Positions 1,771-30,639 of a stretch of 64,000 bases of DNA are shown here, piece after piece. The stretch comes from Escherichia phage vB_EcoM_SQ17. The notes beneath the pieces were generated by a model, which saw only the letters and a program-made list of their open reading frames with translations, searched no databases and was not told where the DNA came from. Within the stretch, counting starts at the first letter, position 1; the number at the start of each line of letters is the position of its first letter. The stretch is taken from the sequence record MW882907; one strand, given 5' to 3'. Position numbers and translations under genes: made by a program.

Positions 1771-2349
1771 TTAATTACCACGGGCTGCATTAGCAACGGC
1801 ATAAGCGTACTGAACATTAGCGTCTTTAAACGTACCTTTAGAGGTATCTATTTCTGCCTTAAAGCCGCCTTTAGCCATAACATCGGCAAATTCTTTACGG
1901 AAAGCCATTGCATCAAGACCTTTCCATGATGATTTATGCTTGGCAAATTCAAGACCTGCGAAGTTGACAGCTTTAGCCAATTTATTATCAATGACCCATT
2001 TACCGGCTTTAGGCACAAACTTCGGTCCTTTTTGTTTAGAGAACAGTTTTAAATTCCAGCGACGAAGATCACTGTCGGCTTTAACAAAAGCTGCGTCTAA
2101 GTTACTAGCAACAACATCTTCAATATGAGCAAATTTAAGTCCGTCAACTTCAATATTTAGATCGTTACGCCAGCGAAGTCCTTCCCAAGCGAAGGCTTTA
2201 AAATCAGAAGCTTTTGTGGCTAGATATCGTTCAAGTGGAGCAGTTTTAGGGTCAAAGCCGTTTCCGCCACGATAAGTCCACTCGTCCTTATTAATGCCTT
2301 GAGCTTTTCCTGCAAAGGCCTCGGCGATAAATTCTTTATATGTTTTCAT
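1771..2349 (-). CDS. internal protein III-like
   Basis: Internal Met start gives MKTYKEFIAEA leader; ~192 aa like T4 IPIII; own early promoter upstream. Confidence 0.6.
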   Translation of the reverse strand: MKTYKEFIAEAFAGKAQGINKDEWTYRGGNGFDPKTAPLERYLATKASDFKAFAWEGLRWRNDLNIEVDGLKFAHIEDVVASNLDAAFVKADSDLRRWNLKLFSKQKGPKFVPKAGKWVIDNKLAKAVNFAGLEFAKHKSSWKGLDAMAFRKEFADVMAKGGFKAEIDTSKGTFKDANVQYAYAVANAARGN

Positions 2350-3433: not shown

Positions 3434-3918
3434 ATATACGCTTTCCAAGTTCCTGTTTTAAATGTTGAGATTACGCGTTTCGCGCGATTAGGTGTCTGAC
3501 GATACCACTTAGATTGGGCTAGATTTACTGCCGCTTCGTCCCAACGTTTCTGTTGAAGCATACGAAGAGAATTAGTAAAACCAGCGACGCCTGCTACACC
3601 CATTTGGAAGACCATATTGACCAATGCACATCGACGAACTGCATCTAAAGAATCATATACCGGTTTAAGTTTAGCATTACCCAAGATTCCGCGAACAGCT
3701 TTATCAACATCTTCATTAAATAACTTTTCAGCCTCATCAAGGGTAATTGTACCGTTGCATTTACGTCCGATCATTCTGTCAAGTTCAGCTTTAGCTACGG
3801 CTAAAGACGGGTTCTTTGTTACTAAATGGCCTATGCCAATCGTCCAAAAGCCTTCAGTGTCTTTGTATAAAGACAGTCTAAGACCTTCGTCATTACGAAG
3901 CATTTCAAATATATTCAT
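3430..3918 (-). CDS. e: lysozyme (endolysin)
   Basis: [27 protein letters not shown] ... RAKRVI.TF.TGTW ~80% identical to T4 lysozyme from memory. Confidence 0.92.
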
Positions 3919-3952
3919 AATACCTCCCACGTTTATAGGAGGTATTTATTAC

Positions 3953-4411
3953 TTATAGGATGGTAGTGAGCACCTTATATAATGATTTGCCCATTACATA
4001 TTCCCATTGAGAAGGTTTAATTAAAGCGAATGCATCAAATTCAGGAATCTGTCGTCCGTCTGGGAACGTATGATAGGAATTACAAACACTGTTTCTGAAT
4101 TGCTCGTGCTCTACAGGGATGGTATATAAGAACAGATGAATATTCTTATTGTCTGAGTAATGATGATCACCTAGGTCTTTCAGGAAGGCAGGGTCATATT
4201 GTGTAAACCCGGTTTCTTCTTCGCATTCACGAATAGCGGCTTCGATAGGAGATTCGCCGGGCTCGACACGACCTTTAGGAATATCCCACCGATGAGCTAA
4301 AGAACCTTTAGGACGAGAACCAGTTACACGCCCCATGAATAATTCTTTATCTTCGGTAAGGAAAATAATACCAGCTGATAGTTCTTTCACTTTATTTTTC
4401 TTACTCATCAT
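3953..4411 (-). CDS. nudE: Nudix hydrolase
   Basis: Nudix box GRVEPGESPIEAAIRECEEETGF; position downstream of e as in T4; start uncertain among three Met. Confidence 0.8.
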   Translation of the reverse strand: MMSKKNKVKELSAGIIFLTEDKELFMGRVTGSRPKGSLAHRWDIPKGRVEPGESPIEAAIRECEEETGFTQYDPAFLKDLGDHHYSDNKNIHLFLYTIPVEHEQFRNSVCNSYHTFPDGRQIPEFDAFALIKPSQWEYVMGKSLYKVLTTIL

Positions 4412-4806
4412 CTCAAATTCCTGCATTCGGTAATAAAACGTTCAACTTCATTATTCTTGGCCTTTATCTTGTCTTTATGTTCTTGTAAACTACTTTTAAT
4501 AAGATTAATAATGATGGCAGCGGTACCGCCGCCAATGATGCCACCAACAACACTTATGATAATAGATGCTAATAAGATAGCAATAATATCAACAAAACCG
4601 AAAGAACTCACCTTAGTACTGAAAAACCATATAGACGGTACAAATATAATCCATCCTGTTATCCATTGACACTTATTGAAAAACTTTTCAAGCTCAGCTT
4701 GAGTTGTTCGTATTACTTCATCGATAGGTTGATATCCATTAATGTATCTGTTCACGATAATACCTGCTGGCTGGTCGATTTTAAATTCTTGGCAAATACG
4801 TTTCAC
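4408..4806 (-). CDS. membrane protein, function unknown
   Basis: Two hydrophobic segments (WITGWIIFVPSIWFF; IIAILLASIIISVVGGIIGGG); C-terminal ERFITECR tail. Confidence 0.4.
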   Translation of the reverse strand: MKRICQEFKIDQPAGIIVNRYINGYQPIDEVIRTTQAELEKFFNKCQWITGWIIFVPSIWFFSTKVSSFGFVDIIAILLASIIISVVGGIIGGGTAAIIINLIKSSLQEHKDKIKAKNNEVERFITECRNLR

Positions 4807-4887
4807 TAAGTAGGATGGACATCCTGTCCAATCTACTGAATAGTATGAAATACCTTCATTGATTAGACCAATATGTTTTGTTAATCA

Positions 4888-5574
4888 TTACCAGCCTTCC
4901 ATAGGGAATTCCAGATAAACTTGAGCATTGACACGAATTTCATTGGTAATCTTTTTAACTCGGTCTGTATTACGAGATACACGTCCGAACCAACGCCATC
5001 CATTACTAATTGCACGAGAACCAGTGTGCCATGTTTGCCAATCAAACTGAAGAAGAGTACGATCTGGAGCTTCCCATTTCTCTAGTTCACCTTTTTCAAT
5101 TTTTTCGAGGACTTCTTTGTGCCACTGACGATAGATAAGTTCGCCATCAGGAATCTGACTGAACTCTGCAGTTCCTGTTGCAAAATGAGTAGGACACACG
5201 TCAGCGTTAACAAGACCAAGAATATGTTCAGACAAATAGCGAGGATTGTCATAATCAGGTTGTCCTGCAGTAATAAAGTGTTGACCAACTGGAATATCAG
5301 GGCGTGGTACATCATCATGGTGATATCCAGGAATAGCAGGATACCAACCAGGCATCAGCATGTGGACTCGTGAATCAAATACTACATCAGAGTCTTTCCA
5401 ATCGTCAGGAAGATTTTGGATAAAGCTACGAGTAATTGGGCCGCCATTATCAAAAGCAAAATTCAAATCGCAGTTAAAGAACATAGGCTCGTTTTTAATC
5501 TGGTCGTTTTTAATCGCATGAGCAAAACCACCTACTGCACGAGCTTGACTATTAAACACTTTAGAACTATTCAT
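4888..5574 (-). CDS. hypothetical protein (His/Asp-rich, possible metal-dependent enzyme)
   Basis: 228-aa ORF, tight spacing with neighbours; PGYHHDDVP and CPTHFATG motifs; no secure family assignment. Confidence 0.4.
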   Translation of the reverse strand: MNSSKVFNSQARAVGGFAHAIKNDQIKNEPMFFNCDLNFAFDNGGPITRSFIQNLPDDWKDSDVVFDSRVHMLMPGWYPAIPGYHHDDVPRPDIPVGQHFITAGQPDYDNPRYLSEHILGLVNADVCPTHFATGTAEFSQIPDGELIYRQWHKEVLEKIEKGELEKWEAPDRTLLQFDWQTWHTGSRAISNGWRWFGRVSRNTDRVKKITNEIRVNAQVYLEFPMEGW

Positions 5575-5575
5575 A

Positions 5576-5881
5576 TTATTTTCCTCGACATTCTTTAATG
5601 AAATTTTCTAGATTGGTAGATTCAATAGCTTTTTTACGAGCTTCCGCGTGTTCTTCTTCAGACAATTTACGTTTATAATTGACCCAGACATTATGGTCGA
5701 AACTAGTCGTGGCATATAATAACAATGCTCCAACGAATAGCAAAAACGGCGATAAGAATACAAAACCAGGAACACCATCCATATCGTAAGCCTTTTGTAA
5801 TACTGCAACAGAAAGAGCTGCGTAAAAAGGTGATGCAAATATTGTTAAAAGACCGATTCGATTGGTTTCTGTTAATTTCAT
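5576..5881 (-). CDS. small membrane protein, function unknown
   Basis: Two hydrophobic segments; C-terminal NFIKECR tail similar to the ORF at 4408-4806; early promoter directly upstream. Confidence 0.4.
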   Translation of the reverse strand: MKLTETNRIGLLTIFASPFYAALSVAVLQKAYDMDGVPGFVFLSPFLLFVGALLLYATTSFDHNVWVNYKRKLSEEEHAEARKKAIESTNLENFIKECRGK

Positions 5882-5909
5882 AATATTCTCCTCATGTTTT
5901 AATAGGACT

Positions 5910-5940
5910 ACTATAACATAGTCCCTATAATTGTGTAAAC
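5910..5940 (-). promoter_or_regulatory. T4-type early promoter
   Basis: minus-strand GTTTAC then ~17 nt then TTATAG upstream of 5576-5881 start. Confidence 0.55.
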
Positions 5941-5952
5941 AGTTTTGTGAAG

Positions 5953-6909
5953 TTATTTGAAAGGTTTTACCATATGGAAATTTTGTTTGAAACGTTTGAC
6001 GTAATCGTCATGTCCTAAGCTTTGGTACATACTTACTACTTTGCTGTAGTTTTCCCAGGCATACTCACGGAACCAACCAGAGGTGATGCTTGTGCAGACT
6101 TTTTCCAATGCCATCATGAAACTGGCTTCAGGGTTAATTTTAAAGTCATTAGGAATTTGAGAACGTTCTAATGCTAGTACACATGATTCTTCGTATACAC
6201 CGGCCAATTTGACCATTTCTGGTAATGATTCAAACTTCTCGCGTGAGGTCATGACTTCAGAACCGTCTTTCATATAAAATGTATACGCTGGACAGTCTGT
6301 TAGTGCAATGGCTTCATGAATAGTATCATGGTCATATGTATAGATGTCATCTTTAAAGAACGCACTTTTAGAAGTGTCAAGAACCGGGTGAGCATAGTTC
6401 AAGGTTTCTTTCTGGCGTTTCAGCATAATTTCAGTAAGTTCATCGTTCAGTGTAACACCTTTACCACGAAGATACTGAATATGGTTCATAGTCTTTAAAA
6501 AGAATGGATTATTTTTCTTGAAACGATGAGACATCTTAATGGCAAGACATATCTCAGGAGTTGCCCAGTAAAACCCGTTCAAACGGTCTTTAGTCAAATT
6601 TTTCTTGGCGTATTTTAAAAGGCCATAAGAAGACGTGAAATCTTCAGGAGTGAGTTCACCGACTAATTCACGGACATTAGTGATTGCCGGAACAATATAT
6701 GCTTCAAAATGAGTTTCGCGTCCATTATGGAAGCATTTGAAAACTTGGACATCAGGGTTATCTTGATGAACATATACACCCATCATTTGATTTTTGAATG
6801 CATTCCAAGAACCTTGGTCTGCAATAAAGTCCCAGTCACTATTTTTGATAGCGTTAGAATCAATAAGACCATGATAGTGAAGTGCACGAGAACCAATAAC
6901 TAACATCAT
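5953..6909 (-). CDS. hypothetical protein, possible nucleotidyltransferase-fold motif
   Basis: 318-aa ORF; N-terminal LVIGSRALHYHGL...NSDWDFI loosely fits the GS...DxD nucleotidyltransferase signature (spacing longer than typical). Confidence 0.45.
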   Translation of the reverse strand: MMLVIGSRALHYHGLIDSNAIKNSDWDFIADQGSWNAFKNQMMGVYVHQDNPDVQVFKCFHNGRETHFEAYIVPAITNVRELVGELTPEDFTSSYGLLKYAKKNLTKDRLNGFYWATPEICLAIKMSHRFKKNNPFFLKTMNHIQYLRGKGVTLNDELTEIMLKRQKETLNYAHPVLDTSKSAFFKDDIYTYDHDTIHEAIALTDCPAYTFYMKDGSEVMTSREKFESLPEMVKLAGVYEESCVLALERSQIPNDFKINPEASFMMALEKVCTSITSGWFREYAWENYSKVVSMYQSLGHDDYVKRFKQNFHMVKPFK

Positions 6910-6933
6910 AATATTTTCCTCGGATTAATTAAC

Positions 6934-7185
6934 TTAAATTTCACGACATGCGATATCATATTCATCCCAGAGGTCATCATGTGAAGCCTCTACCAATGGA
7001 ACGATTGTACCATTTATGTCTTCGTTATAAGGGCAAATTGTACAGTGTGCATCTTCAAATCGGATGCCTTTGTGTTCAGATTTTTTATAACGCATATCGA
7101 ATATCTTTGCAAACTTTTCACGAGTAATGGTTTTAGCAACCACTTCGGTTCCGATACTTTCGTAATAAATCATTGTGGACTCCAT
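6934..7185 (-). CDS. hypothetical small protein
   Basis: 83-aa ORF with CTIC..H..C residues; early promoter upstream. Confidence 0.35.
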   Translation of the reverse strand: MESTMIYYESIGTEVVAKTITREKFAKIFDMRYKKSEHKGIRFEDAHCTICPYNEDINGTIVPLVEASHDDLWDEYDIACREI

Positions 7186-7194
7186 TTAATTTGA

Positions 7195-7235
7195 TAGGAC
7201 TACTATAACATAGCCCTATCTTGTTGTAAACTGTT
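7195..7235 (-). promoter_or_regulatory. T4-type early promoter
   Basis: minus-strand GTTTAC ... TATAGT element, same repeat family as other early promoters in the window; coordinates approximate. Confidence 0.5.
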
Positions 7236-7433
7236 TTAGCAAGAATAACTAGATGATACCCAGCCTTGAACAGTAATGCTATTATTGGATAATGAGATCG
7301 CGTCCTGGAGATTCAGACCTGCGTTATCTTCAATCCACAATGTAACTTCTTCGCGTTCTTCTGTTGCAATTTGGAACAGGTTTTCCAGAGCAGCTACTGC
7401 CGTACGTACAGCACAATCTAATTCACGAGACAT
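7236..7433 (-). CDS. hypothetical small protein, C-terminal GWVSSSxxC family
   Basis: 65-aa ORF ending ...SITVQGWVSSSYSC; paralog of the adjacent ORF. Confidence 0.4.
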   Translation of the reverse strand: MSRELDCAVRTAVAALENLFQIATEEREEVTLWIEDNAGLNLQDAISLSNNSITVQGWVSSSYSC

Positions 7434-7442
7434 ATGGTTTCC

Positions 7443-7715
7443 TTAGCAAGTGTGAGAAGATGCAATCCAACCACCAGTTTCGAGGCTCAGGTTGTAGTCG
7501 TATTGGTAAACGTCAGCCCATTCGGCATAGCCGTTTTTTGTACAACGTTCAAGATCGGCTTTAAGTTGTCCGGGTGAATGATAGGTTCCACCCATACCAT
7601 AAGCTGGATACAAGTTGAATGTTGTGTTTTGTTTATCAGCAATTTCTTTGGCAGCCTCAATAGCTGCATAGATTTTTGCTACGGCTTCAGCCAGTTCGGT
7701 TTGTTCTTTAGACAT
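7443..7715 (-). CDS. hypothetical small protein, C-terminal GWxxSSxxC family
   Basis: 90-aa ORF ending ...GGWIASSHTC; same 3' junction architecture as neighbour. Confidence 0.4.
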   Translation of the reverse strand: MSKEQTELAEAVAKIYAAIEAAKEIADKQNTTFNLYPAYGMGGTYHSPGQLKADLERCTKNGYAEWADVYQYDYNLSLETGGWIASSHTC

Positions 7716-7724
7716 AATGATTCC

Positions 7725-7778
7725 TTAGCACATCGCAGAAGACGAAACCCAAGCACCTTTGGTAATAGAGGGTATGAA
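7725..7778 (-). pseudogene. 3' remnant of a third GWVSSSxxC-family gene
   Basis: Minus-strand reading gives ...FIPSITKGAWVSSSAMC-stop with an in-frame stop just upstream and no start; same stop-RBS-ATG junction as the intact paralogs. Confidence 0.35.
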
Positions 7779-7798
7779 TTAATAATAACACATAATTC

Positions 7799-8314
7799 TT
7801 AAAGCAAATCAATCATTTTAACGGTTGGCAAAACGATTTCTTCTTCAATATAAGCAAATTCGACACGTTCAACTACACGCAAGAAATCATAATCATAATA
7901 TTCAGAAGCATGGCCAAGAATATCAGTGAGACCTTCTGATACCAAATATCCATTCTCACGGAACAGGTCAAATACACGTGATTCGTCTTCTTCAGATTTA
8001 TTACCGAGGTCGACTTCAATATCAAAGACCTTTTTAATGAATTCTGGATAAAGCTGGTCCGAGAACAGTCCTTCAACCAAGTATTCATAGATTAAAAGCG
8101 AGCAATCACTGAATAGTGTATTACCACAGTAACGTTCAGCTTTAGTACTAGAATGACGACTCTTAAATTTCTTCAAGAGATATTTAAACTGTTGGATCTC
8201 ATGCTCTTCTACACCAAATAATGTTTTGGTTTTATAATTGTCGCCATCATTTTCCCAAGTAGTGACATCAATTACGTAACCTTTAGGAATTGTACTGCCT
8301 AAACAAATATTCAT
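7799..8314 (-). CDS. hypothetical protein
   Basis: 171-aa ORF, acidic; no recognisable motif. Confidence 0.4.
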   Translation of the reverse strand: MNICLGSTIPKGYVIDVTTWENDGDNYKTKTLFGVEEHEIQQFKYLLKKFKSRHSSTKAERYCGNTLFSDCSLLIYEYLVEGLFSDQLYPEFIKKVFDIEVDLGNKSEEDESRVFDLFRENGYLVSEGLTDILGHASEYYDYDFLRVVERVEFAYIEEEIVLPTVKMIDLL

Positions 8315-8318
8315 TTAC

Positions 8319-8609
8319 TCACCGTACCATATTAATGTAATTATATTCAATGCAACGCAATTTCAAAGGATTCTTGAAAATATCATATTCAAGAGGGCCT
8401 TTTTCTGTTTCAATAAAGAAATCAAAGTTAACTGTGTTAAATTTACCATCTTCACAGAGTAATTTAACCTGTGAAGACGAACGGTCGATATAAACCTTTT
8501 CAACTTCAAAAATAGTCAAAATACCATAGTCATCGACCAGTGCTTTAGCTGCACGTTGATCGCTTTCATATCCATTCTCGACAGATTTTACTTTAGCATA
8601 AAGAATCAT
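8319..8609 (-). CDS. hypothetical protein
   Basis: 96-aa ORF in operon-like spacing. Confidence 0.35.
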   Translation of the reverse strand: MILYAKVKSVENGYESDQRAAKALVDDYGILTIFEVEKVYIDRSSSQVKLLCEDGKFNTVNFDFFIETEKGPLEYDIFKNPLKLRCIEYNYINMVR

Positions 8610-8986
8610 GAGTGTTCCACCACTTCAAAAGTATGTGCACTGACAATCTGGTACCAGTCAAAATTTTCTTCAGCATTTTTGTAGATTTCACGAAGAGCTT
8701 CAACAGTTTTTCCTGTAGCAACAAGATCGTCAATACCGCCAAGAGGATAACAGTCGTAACCAGCAAACAGAAGGAAATTAATAGTTTCTGTAGGTTCTGG
8801 ATGCAGAATACCGTTATCATCTACCACTTCAAAGAAAGTGTAAGAAGGAGTACAAGTTTTAATCCAAGCCCAGGCTTGAGCCGCTGAATCAAATGGTCTG
8901 CGTATCAAACGACAATCAGGGTCTTTAGAAGGATTTGCTTCAAAATCCGCATATACTTGATATTTCATTTTACTCACCTTTTGCAA
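8606..8986 (-). CDS. hypothetical protein
   Basis: 126-aa ORF overlapping neighbours by a few nt. Confidence 0.4.
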   Translation of the reverse strand: MQKVSKMKYQVYADFEANPSKDPDCRLIRRPFDSAAQAWAWIKTCTPSYTFFEVVDDNGILHPEPTETINFLLFAGYDCYPLGGIDDLVATGKTVEALREIYKNAEENFDWYQIVSAHTFEVVEHS

Positions 8987-9155
8987 TTTTATCCATAACG
9001 ATAGCGATTAAGCCGATTAGAAATGCTACTACCAATGAGATAGAATTTTCTGTTGTTGTCAGTAGTCCACAAATGAATCCTACAAACATCGAAAAACTAA
9101 AAGCCATTGAAGCAATTACTACAGCAACATTACGAATCAGTTCAGCGCGTTTCAT
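8970..9155 (-). CDS. small hydrophobic protein
   Basis: 61-aa ORF with two hydrophobic stretches; early promoter upstream. Confidence 0.3.
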   Translation of the reverse strand: MKRAELIRNVAVVIASMAFSFSMFVGFICGLLTTTENSISLVVAFLIGLIAIVMDKIAKGE

Positions 9156-9179
9156 TTTATTCTCCTCAGTAGTTGATAG

Positions 9180-9213
9180 GGTAATAGTATCACTACCCTA
9201 TCTAAAAGTAAAC
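9180..9213 (-). promoter_or_regulatory. T4-type early promoter
   Basis: minus-strand GTTTAC, 18 nt, TACTAT. Confidence 0.5.
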
Positions 9214-9224
9214 GGTTTTATAAA

Positions 9225-9533
9225 CTATTTTATTCCGCGTGATGCAATCGTATTCTGCCGTTTAACGCCAGTTTGTTTAAAGTTATGATTGTCGAGTTGA
9301 TCGGTACGAGCAACTCCGAATGATGATTTAATCTTAGCTTTAGATCCTTTAGTTATAGAAATATACATCTCGGGAGCCCCTTTCTTAAAGTCCGAAGCAA
9401 TTACTTCAACACCGTTCTTAGCAAGTGACCTCAGAATTGCTTCCGCATACTCATCATCAAGACCCGCTTGAGTATGAATAACGAATGTCTTTGGCGCAGC
9501 TGCTTCACAGATAAATTCTTTAAATGTTTTCAT
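9225..9533 (-). CDS. internal protein I-like (CTS leader)
   Basis: MKTFKEFICEAA leader; at the T4 ipI locus adjacent to 57B. Confidence 0.6.
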   Translation of the reverse strand: MKTFKEFICEAAAPKTFVIHTQAGLDDEYAEAILRSLAKNGVEVIASDFKKGAPEMYISITKGSKAKIKSSFGVARTDQLDNHNFKQTGVKRQNTIASRGIK

Positions 9534-9562
9534 TTTATTTTCCTAATTAATTTTGATGAGAT

Positions 9563-9592
9563 AATAGTACCACAACCCTATTTAAAAGTAAA
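9563..9592 (-). promoter_or_regulatory. T4-type early promoter
   Basis: minus-strand GTTTAC, 18 nt, TACTAT upstream of IP-like gene. Confidence 0.5.
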
Positions 9593-9593
9593 C

Positions 9594-9866
9594 TCATTTT
9601 AAATAAATTGCGTATTTTTTATAACCCGCTGTCTCATGTCGAAGACCCTTATCATTAGCAAAACGCTCAATGTTGTTAATTTGATTCTGGTCAAGTTCAG
9701 AGATGTCAAACACGAAATAGTTACGTTTGTTACCAACTGTTACATAGTCAGTTAAATCAATACCATATAGGTAATTGATGTTATCAATCATAGTCTTGAC
9801 AGCTTTGCTAATTTTTACTTTTTCATTAAAAGCAGCTTCATTGATAAATTCTTTAAATGTTTTCAT
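9594..9866 (-). CDS. internal protein-like (CTS leader)
   Basis: Internal Met gives MKTFKEFINEAA leader; early promoter lies between track ORF start and this Met, supporting the internal start. Confidence 0.6.
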   Translation of the reverse strand: MKTFKEFINEAAFNEKVKISKAVKTMIDNINYLYGIDLTDYVTVGNKRNYFVFDISELDQNQINNIERFANDKGLRHETAGYKKYAIYLK

Positions 9867-9902
9867 TTTATTCTCTAATTTCACATTTGTTTTGATAGGA
9901 TG

Positions 9903-9932
9903 ATAGTAACACACCATCATCCTTATGTAAAC
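9903..9932 (-). promoter_or_regulatory. T4-type early promoter
   Basis: minus-strand GTTTAC, ~18 nt, TACTAT. Confidence 0.5.
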
Positions 9933-9944
9933 TGTTTTGTGAAA

Positions 9945-10630
<686 letters not shown>

Positions 10631-30003: not shown

Positions 30004-30639
30004 ATGGCAACATACTACAGATTGTATATTACAACATTTGAAACATCCACCGGTATAAAGATTTATGGTGGTAAACACAAATCAGTTTACGAAGACCCTT
30101 CAAAAGACCCTTATACCGGGTCTGGTACCTTTATACGAAGGGCCAAAAGAAAATACGGTCCGTCTTGTATAAAAGAAATTATATGGTCTAAGCCATTTGA
30201 ATCTAAAGCTCTAATGGATGAAGCTGAAGAGTTACTGGTAGATGAATTATCCATTTTAGAAAATTGCGCAAATCTTGTTAAAGGTGGTGCAGGCGGAAGG
30301 TCGTATATTAACCCAGAAGATAATCCATCTATAGGACAAAAACGTTCAGCCCAATCTAAAAAGAAAATGTCTGACGCCGCAAAATCAAGAAAATGGACTG
30401 AAGAAGGGTTAAGAAAACGTAAAGAATCTACAGCAAGAATGTGGAAAGATTTCAAACATAGACATCCTGATTTTTCTGGTTCAAAAAATCCAGCAGCTCG
30501 AAAAGTTAGTGTAAATGGTAAAATATTTAACACCTGCAAAGAATGTGGTGAAGAATTTAATATCACATCAAGCGCGGTTATAGGCCGATGCAAAAACAAC
30601 AAACCTAAATGGGCAGGATGGAATTATGTCGACGTATAA
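30004..30639 (+). CDS. free-standing homing endonuclease, GIY-YIG/seg-like with I-TevI-type C-terminal DNA-binding domain
   Basis: N-term YRLY...GIKIYGG resembles GIY...YIG; C-terminal [36 protein letters not shown] parallels I-TevI VIFDCAADAARHFKISSGLVTYRVKSDKWNWFY; inserted between genes 13 and 14. Confidence 0.6.

Follow-up and report, generated by a model that had tools for sequence, protein, structure and literature searches.

The window considered here is a 64,000-nucleotide (nt) stretch of Escherichia phage vB_EcoM_SQ17 (sequence record MW882907), the DNA being of the RB69-like Mosigvirus type, within the Tevenvirinae. Between positions 4408 and 9155 it carries eleven open reading frames (ORFs) on the minus strand, 61 to 318 amino acids (aa) long and separated by gaps of at most 83 nt, which we number O1 to O11 by ascending coordinate, transcription running from O11 to O1. 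Each of them matches a PHROG family at E≤3e-18, which identifies them as genuine genes and not chance ORFs. The block is flanked on the left by denV, an internal-protein gene, e and nudE, and on the right by two internal-head-protein genes, 57B, 57A and gene 1. It is very probably the variable ("hyperplastic") region that RB69-like Mosigvirus genomes carry between nudE and the internal-protein genes, in the form of an early accessory block shortened by deletion. Its left 3.4 kb (O1 to O7) corresponds to the e.2-ORF137c segment of RB69, and its right 1.4 kb comprises O8 together with orthologues of T4 trna.2, trna.3 and trna.4. The encoded proteins would be accessory and dispensable, two of them being enzymes (O4 and O2) and three being small membrane proteins, with a number of small acidic proteins besides. 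An earlier note on this DNA, drawn up from the letters alone, had rightly described some eleven tightly packed minus-strand ORFs of these sizes. It had also judged that none of the products could be assigned, and this second judgement does not stand, as all eleven belong to known phage families and two of them, O2 and O4, can be given predicted enzyme folds.

Gene order and relatives of the block

Over positions 4408-7767 the window is 95.7% identical to RB69 at the DNA level (megablast), and the block is matched by 776 phage records. The RB69 counterpart (NC_004928, 66.4-69.8 kb) is annotated as e.2 and ORF132c to ORF137c, and the proteins O2 to O7 are 95.6-100% identical to RB69ORF132c to 137c. 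Gene order and strand are as in RB69, and early promoters stand at the same intergenic sites. Unlike RB69, the window lacks RB69ORF130c, ORF138c/139c and e.3-e.8, an 11-bp indel has put its e.2 out of frame, and it carries O8 (7799-8314; 171 aa, phrog_2290), which has no match in the RB69 stretch compared.

From 7752 to 9600 the window is 98% identical to phage vB_VIPECOMC06. In this right part, O9 (8319-8609; 96 aa, phrog_2023), O10 (8606-8986; a maximal ORF of 126 aa, phrog_1411) and O11 (8970-9155; 61 aa, phrog_1692) are 85%, 38% and 84% identical in amino-acid sequence to T4 trna.2 (Y07B), trna.3 (Y07C) and trna.4 (Y07D), respectively (E 1e-23 to 7e-48), in the same order and on the same strand, next to an internal-protein gene. 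Identical copies of the three on a metagenomic contig (L012) carry the Pfam models Phage_T4_Y07B/C/D, with PF27001 on the O9 copy. By similarity and position, O9, O10 and O11 are the orthologues of trna.2, trna.3 and trna.4. The start of O10 is likely the ATG at 8968, giving 120 aa, the length called in its relatives.

The corresponding region of T4 holds e.2-e.8, rnaC/rnaD, eight tRNAs, segB and trna.2-trna.4, much as the earlier note had it, the last three genes being left unmentioned there. The flanks listed above are those of the e-to-ipI region of T4; unlike T4, the block is without e.3-e.8, small RNAs, tRNAs and segB. The only counterpart among e.2-e.8 is that of O1 with e.2 (phrog_2203; tblastn E=7e-4), e.3-e.8 being absent from the whole window, and hence the idea that all of the ORFs might be ordinary e.2-e.8 orthologues can be set aside. 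For O2 to O8, no homologue was detected in T4 bases 1-78,000 or 119,000-168,903, the parts on either side of the late-gene block at 78-119 kb.

Outside the block, at 1774-2349 (minus strand), a protein 93% identical to T4 ipIII is encoded where RB69 has different ORFs (123c/124c), as if an internal-protein allele of T4 type had been set in an otherwise Mosigvirus genome.

The missing tRNA block

ARAGORN finds no tRNA gene in the entire 64-kb window, and a permissive Rfam scan of positions 3900-10000 returned nothing credible, only two eukaryotic families below threshold; that the interval is devoid of tRNA genes had been correctly read from the sequence before. The reason becomes apparent by comparison with vB_VIPECOMC06, in which the left and right parts of the block lie 5,121 bp apart. 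The intervening stretch contains a second phrog_899 gene, with which the O6/O7 family numbers three copies, then e.3, e.4, e.5, e.6 and frd.3, a pair of small ORFs, e.8 and a further ORF, and lastly genes for a GIY-YIG homing endonuclease and for tRNA-Met. Positions 7600-7759 of the window align to 3728-3887 of vB_VIPECOMC06 (L005) and positions 7752-7900 to 9001-9149, the two alignments overlapping by the 8 bp AGCACCTT. As read from these alignments, 5,121 bp have been deleted here by recombination at an 8-bp microhomology, AGCACCTT, located at 7752-7759. The tRNAs are therefore absent because of a 5.1-kb deletion and not because other genes fill the space. What had been taken for a distinct island of ORFs in place of the tRNA region is instead a standard RB69 segment joined to the trna.2-trna.4 orthologues, the tRNAs having been deleted.

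The deletion scar spans 7725-7759 on the minus strand. Positions 7757-7725 read GAWVSSSAMC*, the last 10 codons and the stop of a third phrog_899-family gene, and this is exactly the C-terminus of the vB_VIPECOMC06 third-copy gene. Thus, the "decayed third copy" of a duplicated small-protein family, which the earlier note had perceived, is the scar of the deletion; the duplication itself is equally real, as O6 (7236-7433; 65 aa, RB69ORF136c equivalent, phrog_4882) and O7 (7443-7715; 90 aa, RB69ORF137c equivalent, phrog_899), two small proteins acidic by eye, have in common the C-terminal motif GW(V/I)(S/A)SS..C.

On contigs with an O8 identical to that of the window, genes for tRNA-Met and tRNA-Arg follow immediately downstream of O8. 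Elsewhere in the window the deleted genes, e.3-e.8 included, have no match, which rules out their relocation within it. Deletion by way of the promoter cassettes described below is also ruled out, the junction being the 8-bp microhomology. Moreover, another Mosigvirus, EP32B (OR544955; around 6044-6062), has undergone an independent loss of this block. There, a 5.4-kb deletion equivalent to vB_VIPECOMC06 3529-8950, with different end points, begins within O6 and has taken away O7, the third copy, e.3-e.8 and the homing endonuclease, leaving only a small part of tRNA-Met. The genome of EP32B measures 156.7 kb. AV114 presents another arrangement in which tRNAs are kept; tRNA-Asn and tRNA-Met are annotated there, and ARAGORN confirms tRNA-Met only.

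In experimental evolution, T4 undergoes deletions of 0.7-6 kb in accessory regions, as well as segmental amplifications bounded by microhomologies of 6-10 bp (Srikant, Guegler and Laub 2022, PMC9391042). The loss described here is similarly on the kilobase scale (5.1 kb) and in a non-essential early region, and its 8-bp microhomology falls within the range of those amplification junctions; unlike the T4 deletions, it is found in a sequenced genome and not in an evolution experiment. The ease with which T4 deletes such regions in the laboratory (PMC9391042) could equally be taken as a sign that the missing tRNA/e.3-e.8 segment is a laboratory deletion, or else an assembly artefact, rather than a natural form, and no other record spanning the junction was found in 50,697 phage records, IMG/VR or JGI metagenome contigs. 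Such an origin is nonetheless very improbable indeed. An identical 36-nt junction exists in the Logan assembly of run SRR27732229 (contig L014), a separate read assembly though possibly of the same isolate, which argues against a one-off assembly error; a clean 8-bp junction microhomology is typical of real T4-type deletions; and EP32B lost the same block independently.

Taken as a natural deletion, the junction offers a clean case of microhomology-mediated loss of the tRNA/e.3-e.8 segment, recurrent in that a second Mosigvirus arrived at it independently. A loss of this kind fits the experiments in which T4 sheds accessory and counter-defence genes in like manner, and it predicts that the phage may be more sensitive to tRNA-depleting hosts or defences.

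Far from the block, at 30022-30315 (plus strand), there is a GIY-YIG homing-endonuclease-like ORF; its product shares some 35% identity with T4 SegB and with the vB_VIPECOMC06 endonuclease in their N-terminal domains.

Predicted early promoters and transcription units

GTTTAC occurs on the minus strand at 9213, 7231 and 5940, in all three cases in an intergenic gap. The three sites share a cassette of about 40 nt composed of an A-rich tract, GTTTAC(A/T), ATAGGG, an extended -10 element of the form TGnTA(T/C)(A/T)(G/A)T, and CCTAT, with a Shine-Dalgarno sequence and a start codon downstream of each. The cassette at 5902-5940 (GTTTACA, ATAGGG, TGTTATAGT and CCTAT, in this order) would serve O3, O2, O1 and possibly nudE; that at 7193-7231, O5 and O4; and that at 9176-9213, O11, O10, O9, O8 and, since the deletion, also O7 and O6. 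Zero chance matches to the 39-nt cassette pattern are expected. Six further promoters of this kind exist within the window, all on the minus strand and each ahead of an ORF; at these six sites, as at the three of the block, a GTTTAC -35 element, a spacer of 17-18 nt, an extended -10 (TGnTAnnnT) and an A-rich tract are found. The earlier count of at least three T4-type early promoters is thus confirmed by three near-identical consensus sites. Acting as sigma-70 early promoters, they would give rise to three leftward multi-gene transcripts made by the host RNA polymerase right after infection, comprising O11-O10-O9-O8-(scar)-O7-O6, O5-O4, and O3-O2-O1, the last perhaps extending into nudE.

Within the cassettes, an inverted repeat of the form ATAGGGnnn...nnnCCCTAT overlaps the spacer, the -10 element and the start site. 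A terminator scan found no stem-loop beside the three promoters, and an RNA hairpin is not expected from the repeat because its right arm alone is transcribed; a protein might bind to the repeat, or recombination might make use of it. Inverted repeats bracketing the -10, for instance ATAGGGTA...TACCCTAT and GGATGAT...ATCATCC, are seen at the promoters at 5902-5940, 7193-7231, 9176-9213, 9932 and 58314 (minus strand).

A further candidate promoter lies at 7782-7806 on the minus strand, overlapping the stop codon of O8. By sequence reading it consists of TGCTTTA, 12 nt and TATTAT, and it resembles the consensus of the MotA-dependent middle promoters of T4. In relatives this candidate faces the tRNA gene(s); in the window, since the deletion, O7 and O6 have taken their place.

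T4-type phages are known to possess variable regions, termed "hyperplastic", in which early-promoter cassettes (PeSL) recur (Arbiol 2010, PMC2839356; Comeau 2014, PMC4122927). As in those regions (PMC2839356, PMC4122927), accessory ORFs are found here between conserved core blocks, with a repeated TTTACW-N17-TAYWAT-type cassette ahead of them. Unlike the PeSL cassettes, which have a separate upstream terminator stem-loop, those of the block have their inverted repeat within the promoter. Neither do the cassettes stand at the boundaries of the mapped 5.1-kb deletion, which joins the interior of an ORF to an intergenic site via AGCACCTT.

Predicted enzymes and possible roles of the products

O4 (5953-6909; 318 aa, RB69ORF134c equivalent) matches two Pfam domains, DUF7277 in its N-terminal part (2.4e-27) and the helical DUF7275 (2.2e-78). 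Scans of O1 to O10 with Pfam, NCBIfam and PADLOC gave no real match other than these two. The AlphaFold model of O4, built with 38 sequences, has a pLDDT of 92.3, and the invariant residues comprise G6-S7 after strand 1, D25-x-D27 on strand 2 and E69 on a later strand. With the hG[GS] and DxD motifs, the third carboxylate and the alpha/beta fold all present in the model, we are confident in predicting that the N-terminus adopts the polymerase-beta nucleotidyltransferase fold, a possibility that had already been raised for this locus and that the signature motifs and structural matches now uphold. Among solved structures, the best structural match is MenT1, MenT3 and MenT4 stand within the top four, and ANT(2'') and LnuA have nearly equal scores. 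By contrast with these structural matches, O4 has no sequence-level relation to either group, and it matches neither Pfam AbiEii nor RlaP, nor any entry of the PDB by sequence or profile. What O4 has in common with the MenT/AbiEii toxins and the ANT/Lnu antibiotic nucleotidyltransferases is the fold, with its GS and DxD motifs, its third carboxylate and the helical lobe that comes after; what sets it apart from both is a much larger and highly conserved C-terminal DUF7275. Unlike the MenT/AbiEii toxins, it has no evident antitoxin partner (its neighbours are O5, of 79-83 aa, and O3, a membrane protein), and its family is viral. An identity as an RlaP RNA-repair nucleotidyltransferase was rejected: T4 nrdC.11 matches PF10127 at 4.6e-12 and O4 does not, and hhalign of O4 against nrdC.11 gives a probability of 0.1, with an alignment confined to the SDxDF motif.

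The O4 family is a large one, with 2,070 database matches and 733 phage records. It is carried by many genera of Straboviridae, by phages of the 150-kb Phapecoctavirus type and of the Pseudomonas KIL type, among others, as well as by sequences labelled giant eukaryotic viruses, and the C-terminal domain is found alone in actinophages. A Foldseek search of BFVD with O4 returned other DUF7275 proteins only. In Klebsiella phage phi1_175008 (149 kb), a SIR2-domain protein is encoded at 7040-7918, about 2 kb downstream of the O4 homologue.

O2 (4888-5574; 228 aa, RB69ORF132c equivalent, phrog_1843) was singled out in the earlier note for its richness in His and Asp, and the model and the invariant motif bear this out. 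Its model (pLDDT 89.6) shows a double-stranded beta-helix, and H85-x-D87, H183 and R194 are invariant, in a HxD...H...R pattern. From this fold, the HxD...H triad and a basic residue some ten positions after the distal His, O2 is confidently predicted to be an Fe(II)/2-oxoglutarate oxygenase. No Pfam or NCBIfam model matches it at E≤0.1, curated models such as PhyH and 2OG-FeII_Oxy included, and no significant PDB match was obtained by sequence or profile; one UniRef cluster of an O2 homologue is named 'phytanoyl-CoA dioxygenase family protein'. The double-stranded beta-helix and the HxD...H...R pattern are those of PhyH-like oxygenases (EasH, EctD, proline hydroxylases, PhyH), from which O2 differs by the lack of a Pfam oxygenase match and by its 228 aa, shorter than most relatives. 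Homologues of O2 are present in 472 phage records. Comparison with the homologue of an Aeromonas phage (L007 6028-6714) gives O2 an amino-acid identity of 82% and a nucleotide identity of 73%, the pS being 0.79 (saturated) and the pN 0.14; some 60 aa around the HHDD motif are almost unchanged, and the neighbouring O4 is 45% identical only. The synonymous saturation together with the low pN implies strong purifying selection over the long term, and recent transfer as the cause of this identity is ruled out, synonymous sites being saturated. Such extreme conservation shows that O2 has an important role.

O4 and O2, between which the window has only the small membrane-protein gene O3, are neighbours in a number of enterobacterial T4-like phages. 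A gap of about 300-600 bp with one small gene in between is found in RB69, JS10, Marfa, PWKp18, IME523 and phiC120, and one of about 1 kb in an Aeromonas phage. A functional link between the two is only suggested by this proximity. As a best guess, O4 and O2 would covalently modify an RNA end, a nucleotide or a small molecule of the host or the phage early in infection, rather than acting as inhibitors by binding. As to the target, in a rough ranking an RNA or tRNA 3' end would come slightly ahead of a small molecule or nucleotide, followed at some distance by a protein and then, less probable again, by anything else. A participation of O2 or O4 in the arabinosyl-5-hydroxycytosine DNA-modification pathway of RB69 is ruled out, the genes of this pathway (RB69p003, 028, 045-055, 159) being elsewhere in the RB69 genome (PMC13326640).

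Two more ambitious proposals can be built on this pair. In one of them, O4 and O2 would constitute an RNA or tRNA module in which O4 adds nucleotides to 3' ends in the manner of the MenT toxins, either shutting off host translation or repairing ends cut by host nucleases, and O2 hydroxylates or demethylates RNA. The MenT1, MenT3 and MenT4 matches speak for it, given that MenT toxins are reported to extend tRNA acceptor stems (PMC10435456). So do the phage tRNA genes that the locus ancestrally held, the Rnl1 RNA ligase located 3.8 kb upstream of O4 in an Aeromonas phage, and the O2-like gene that adjoins an RtcB-like ligase in Gordonia phage ClubL. However, the small-molecule enzymes ANT(2'') and LnuA score almost as high as the toxins, O4 matches neither of the Pfam families AbiEii and RlaP, and O4 and O2 both persist in a window with zero tRNA genes, so that we regard an RNA module as improbable. 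Distinctly improbable, too, is that O4, the membrane protein O3 and O2 make up a previously unrecognised two-enzyme early pathway common to many large virulent phages. If it were true, this pathway would act on an RNA end, on a nucleotide signal or on a small molecule directed against phages, by hydroxylation followed by nucleotidylation or in the opposite order, and would represent a new kind of enzymatic host-takeover or counter-defence chemistry.

The earlier note had found the locus to fit a host-takeover or anti-defence island. Early promoters, variability, small accessory genes and counter-defence neighbours are indeed there. Acb1/57B, a proven counter-defence gene, is some 800 bp from the block: the 57B homologue at 9945-10400 (minus strand) matches Pfam Acb1, an anti-CBASS nuclease, at 7.4e-59 and is 86% identical to T4 57B. 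Closer still are the two internal-head-protein genes at 9225-9533 and 9594-9920 (minus strand; phrog_2667 and phrog_7673), with early promoters at 9593 and 9932. Both of their products begin with an N-terminus of the MKTFKEFI(C/N)EA type, which looks like the capsid-targeting sequence of T4, the true start of the second gene probably being an internal ATG. In T4, the internal proteins Ip1-3 inhibit GmrSD nucleases (PMC12373910), and accessory genes lost in similar deletions, for instance ipIII and nrdC.5, proved to be counter-defence genes (PMC9391042). These neighbours and precedents, together with the early promoters, the content that varies among close relatives and the small size of O5 to O8, as is typical of such inhibitors (O6 and O7 also being acidic-looking), are what would make the block an anti-defence or host-takeover island, most of whose products inhibit bacterial immunity or the host machinery. 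Nevertheless, no homology of O1 to O11 to a characterised anti-defence protein was found in Pfam, PHROGs, NCBIfam or the literature searched, no dedicated anti-defence library having been used; PADLOC, whose models are of defence and not of anti-defence, gave one weak match, of O1 to PDC-M09B (E=0.0035). Nor were the genes of the block mentioned in that literature under their RB69 ORF names, their DUF numbers, trna.2-trna.4 or e.2/e.6. The purifying selection on O2 is very strong and spans genera, unlike that on a fast-evolving or host-specific inhibitor, and O4 is conserved from coliphages to sequences labelled giant eukaryotic viruses, which is again unlike a host-specific inhibitor. Furthermore, the block is partly decaying or lost (O1 frameshifted, 5.1 kb gone). 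An island devoted mostly to anti-defence is, on balance, rather unlikely; the T4 precedents and the genomic context make it plausible that some of the small proteins act against host defences.

The reading that we prefer, that of a known accessory region in a deletion-shortened form, has its own points to answer. That sequence was deleted here, and not inserted in the relatives, is deduced from the truncated gene tail and the T4 layout, and the activity of the promoters from matches to the consensus. The functions of all eleven products are predictions from sequence, and the active-site geometry assigned to O2 and O4 follows from motif position and secondary structure in the models. In addition, vB_VIPECOMC06 and the 149-kb Klebsiella phage have O4 without O2, and a long distance separates the two genes in Aeromonas phage 60AhydR15PP and in Gordonia phage ClubL, so that their adjacency elsewhere may be inherited gene order only. 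All of these weigh against the reading in one or another of its parts. As a genome feature, the block is a largely ordinary instance of the known variable region of T4-type phages, in a deletion variant. Its residual value lies in the natural and recurrent loss of the tRNA block and in the two widespread and conserved phage families of O2 and O4, which gain enzyme assignments that can now be tested.

The remaining ORFs encode membrane proteins and small proteins. A hydropathy scan shows three of them, O1, O3 and O11, to be hydrophobic membrane proteins of small size, O3 (5576-5881; 101 aa, RB69ORF133c equivalent, phrog_9798) and O11 with two separate spans, and O1 (4408-4806; 132 aa, phrog_2203) with one long hydrophobic stretch at about residues 61-104, enough for two spans. 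Two paralogous membrane proteins had been proposed here. Their membrane nature stands, and their paralogy is weakly suggested by matches of both O1 (1.4e-35) and O3 (3.4e-3) to phrog_2203 and by a common C-terminal FI(T/K)ECR motif (BLASTP E=0.001). O1 belongs to the e.2 family: T4 e.2 matches phrog_2203 at 7.5e-42, and its residues 14-46 align by tblastn to 4860-4762, across the start of O1, while a direct BLASTP of O1 against T4 e.2 is not significant. Relative to the RB69 e.2 (163 aa), O1 is truncated at its 5' end, an 11-bp deletion shifting the frame. The frameshifted 5' remnant of e.2, recognized by alignment with RB69 e.2, occupies 4807-4888 (minus strand) and consists of a 10-codon leader ORF, MINKTYWSNQ*, followed by out-of-frame codons of the e.2 N-terminus. 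O1 starts at a GTG with no obvious ribosome-binding site, and it may be decaying. The same 132-aa form of e.2 is annotated in vB_VIPECOMC06, and e.2 is split differently in AV114 and EP32B.

O5 (6934-7185; RB69ORF135c equivalent, phrog_3723) is a maximal ORF of 83 aa whose start is likely the ATG at 7173, giving 79 aa. For O5, O6, O7, O9 and O10 the library scans gave nothing beyond the PHROG families, and searches of the PDB with O5, O9 and O10, by sequence and by profile, gave no significant match. O8 has no Pfam model and no PDB relative by sequence profile, and its identity as the NADAR anti-DarT factor is ruled out, this factor being gene 30.3 at another locus (PMC11825919). Its family comprises 24 clusters in a word-indexed search and 1,016 clusters (50% identity, E≤0.001) in a full HMMER profile search. 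Ten of the ten representatives scanned consist of a single phrog_2290 domain, measure 157-212 aa and have no credible match in Pfam; O8 thus stands for a large family for which Pfam has no model. An invariant W-E-N-D-G-D ... GN ... RV signature, with E21, D23, D25, F50, G64, N65 and R146, runs through the family and suggests a metal-binding or catalytic site.

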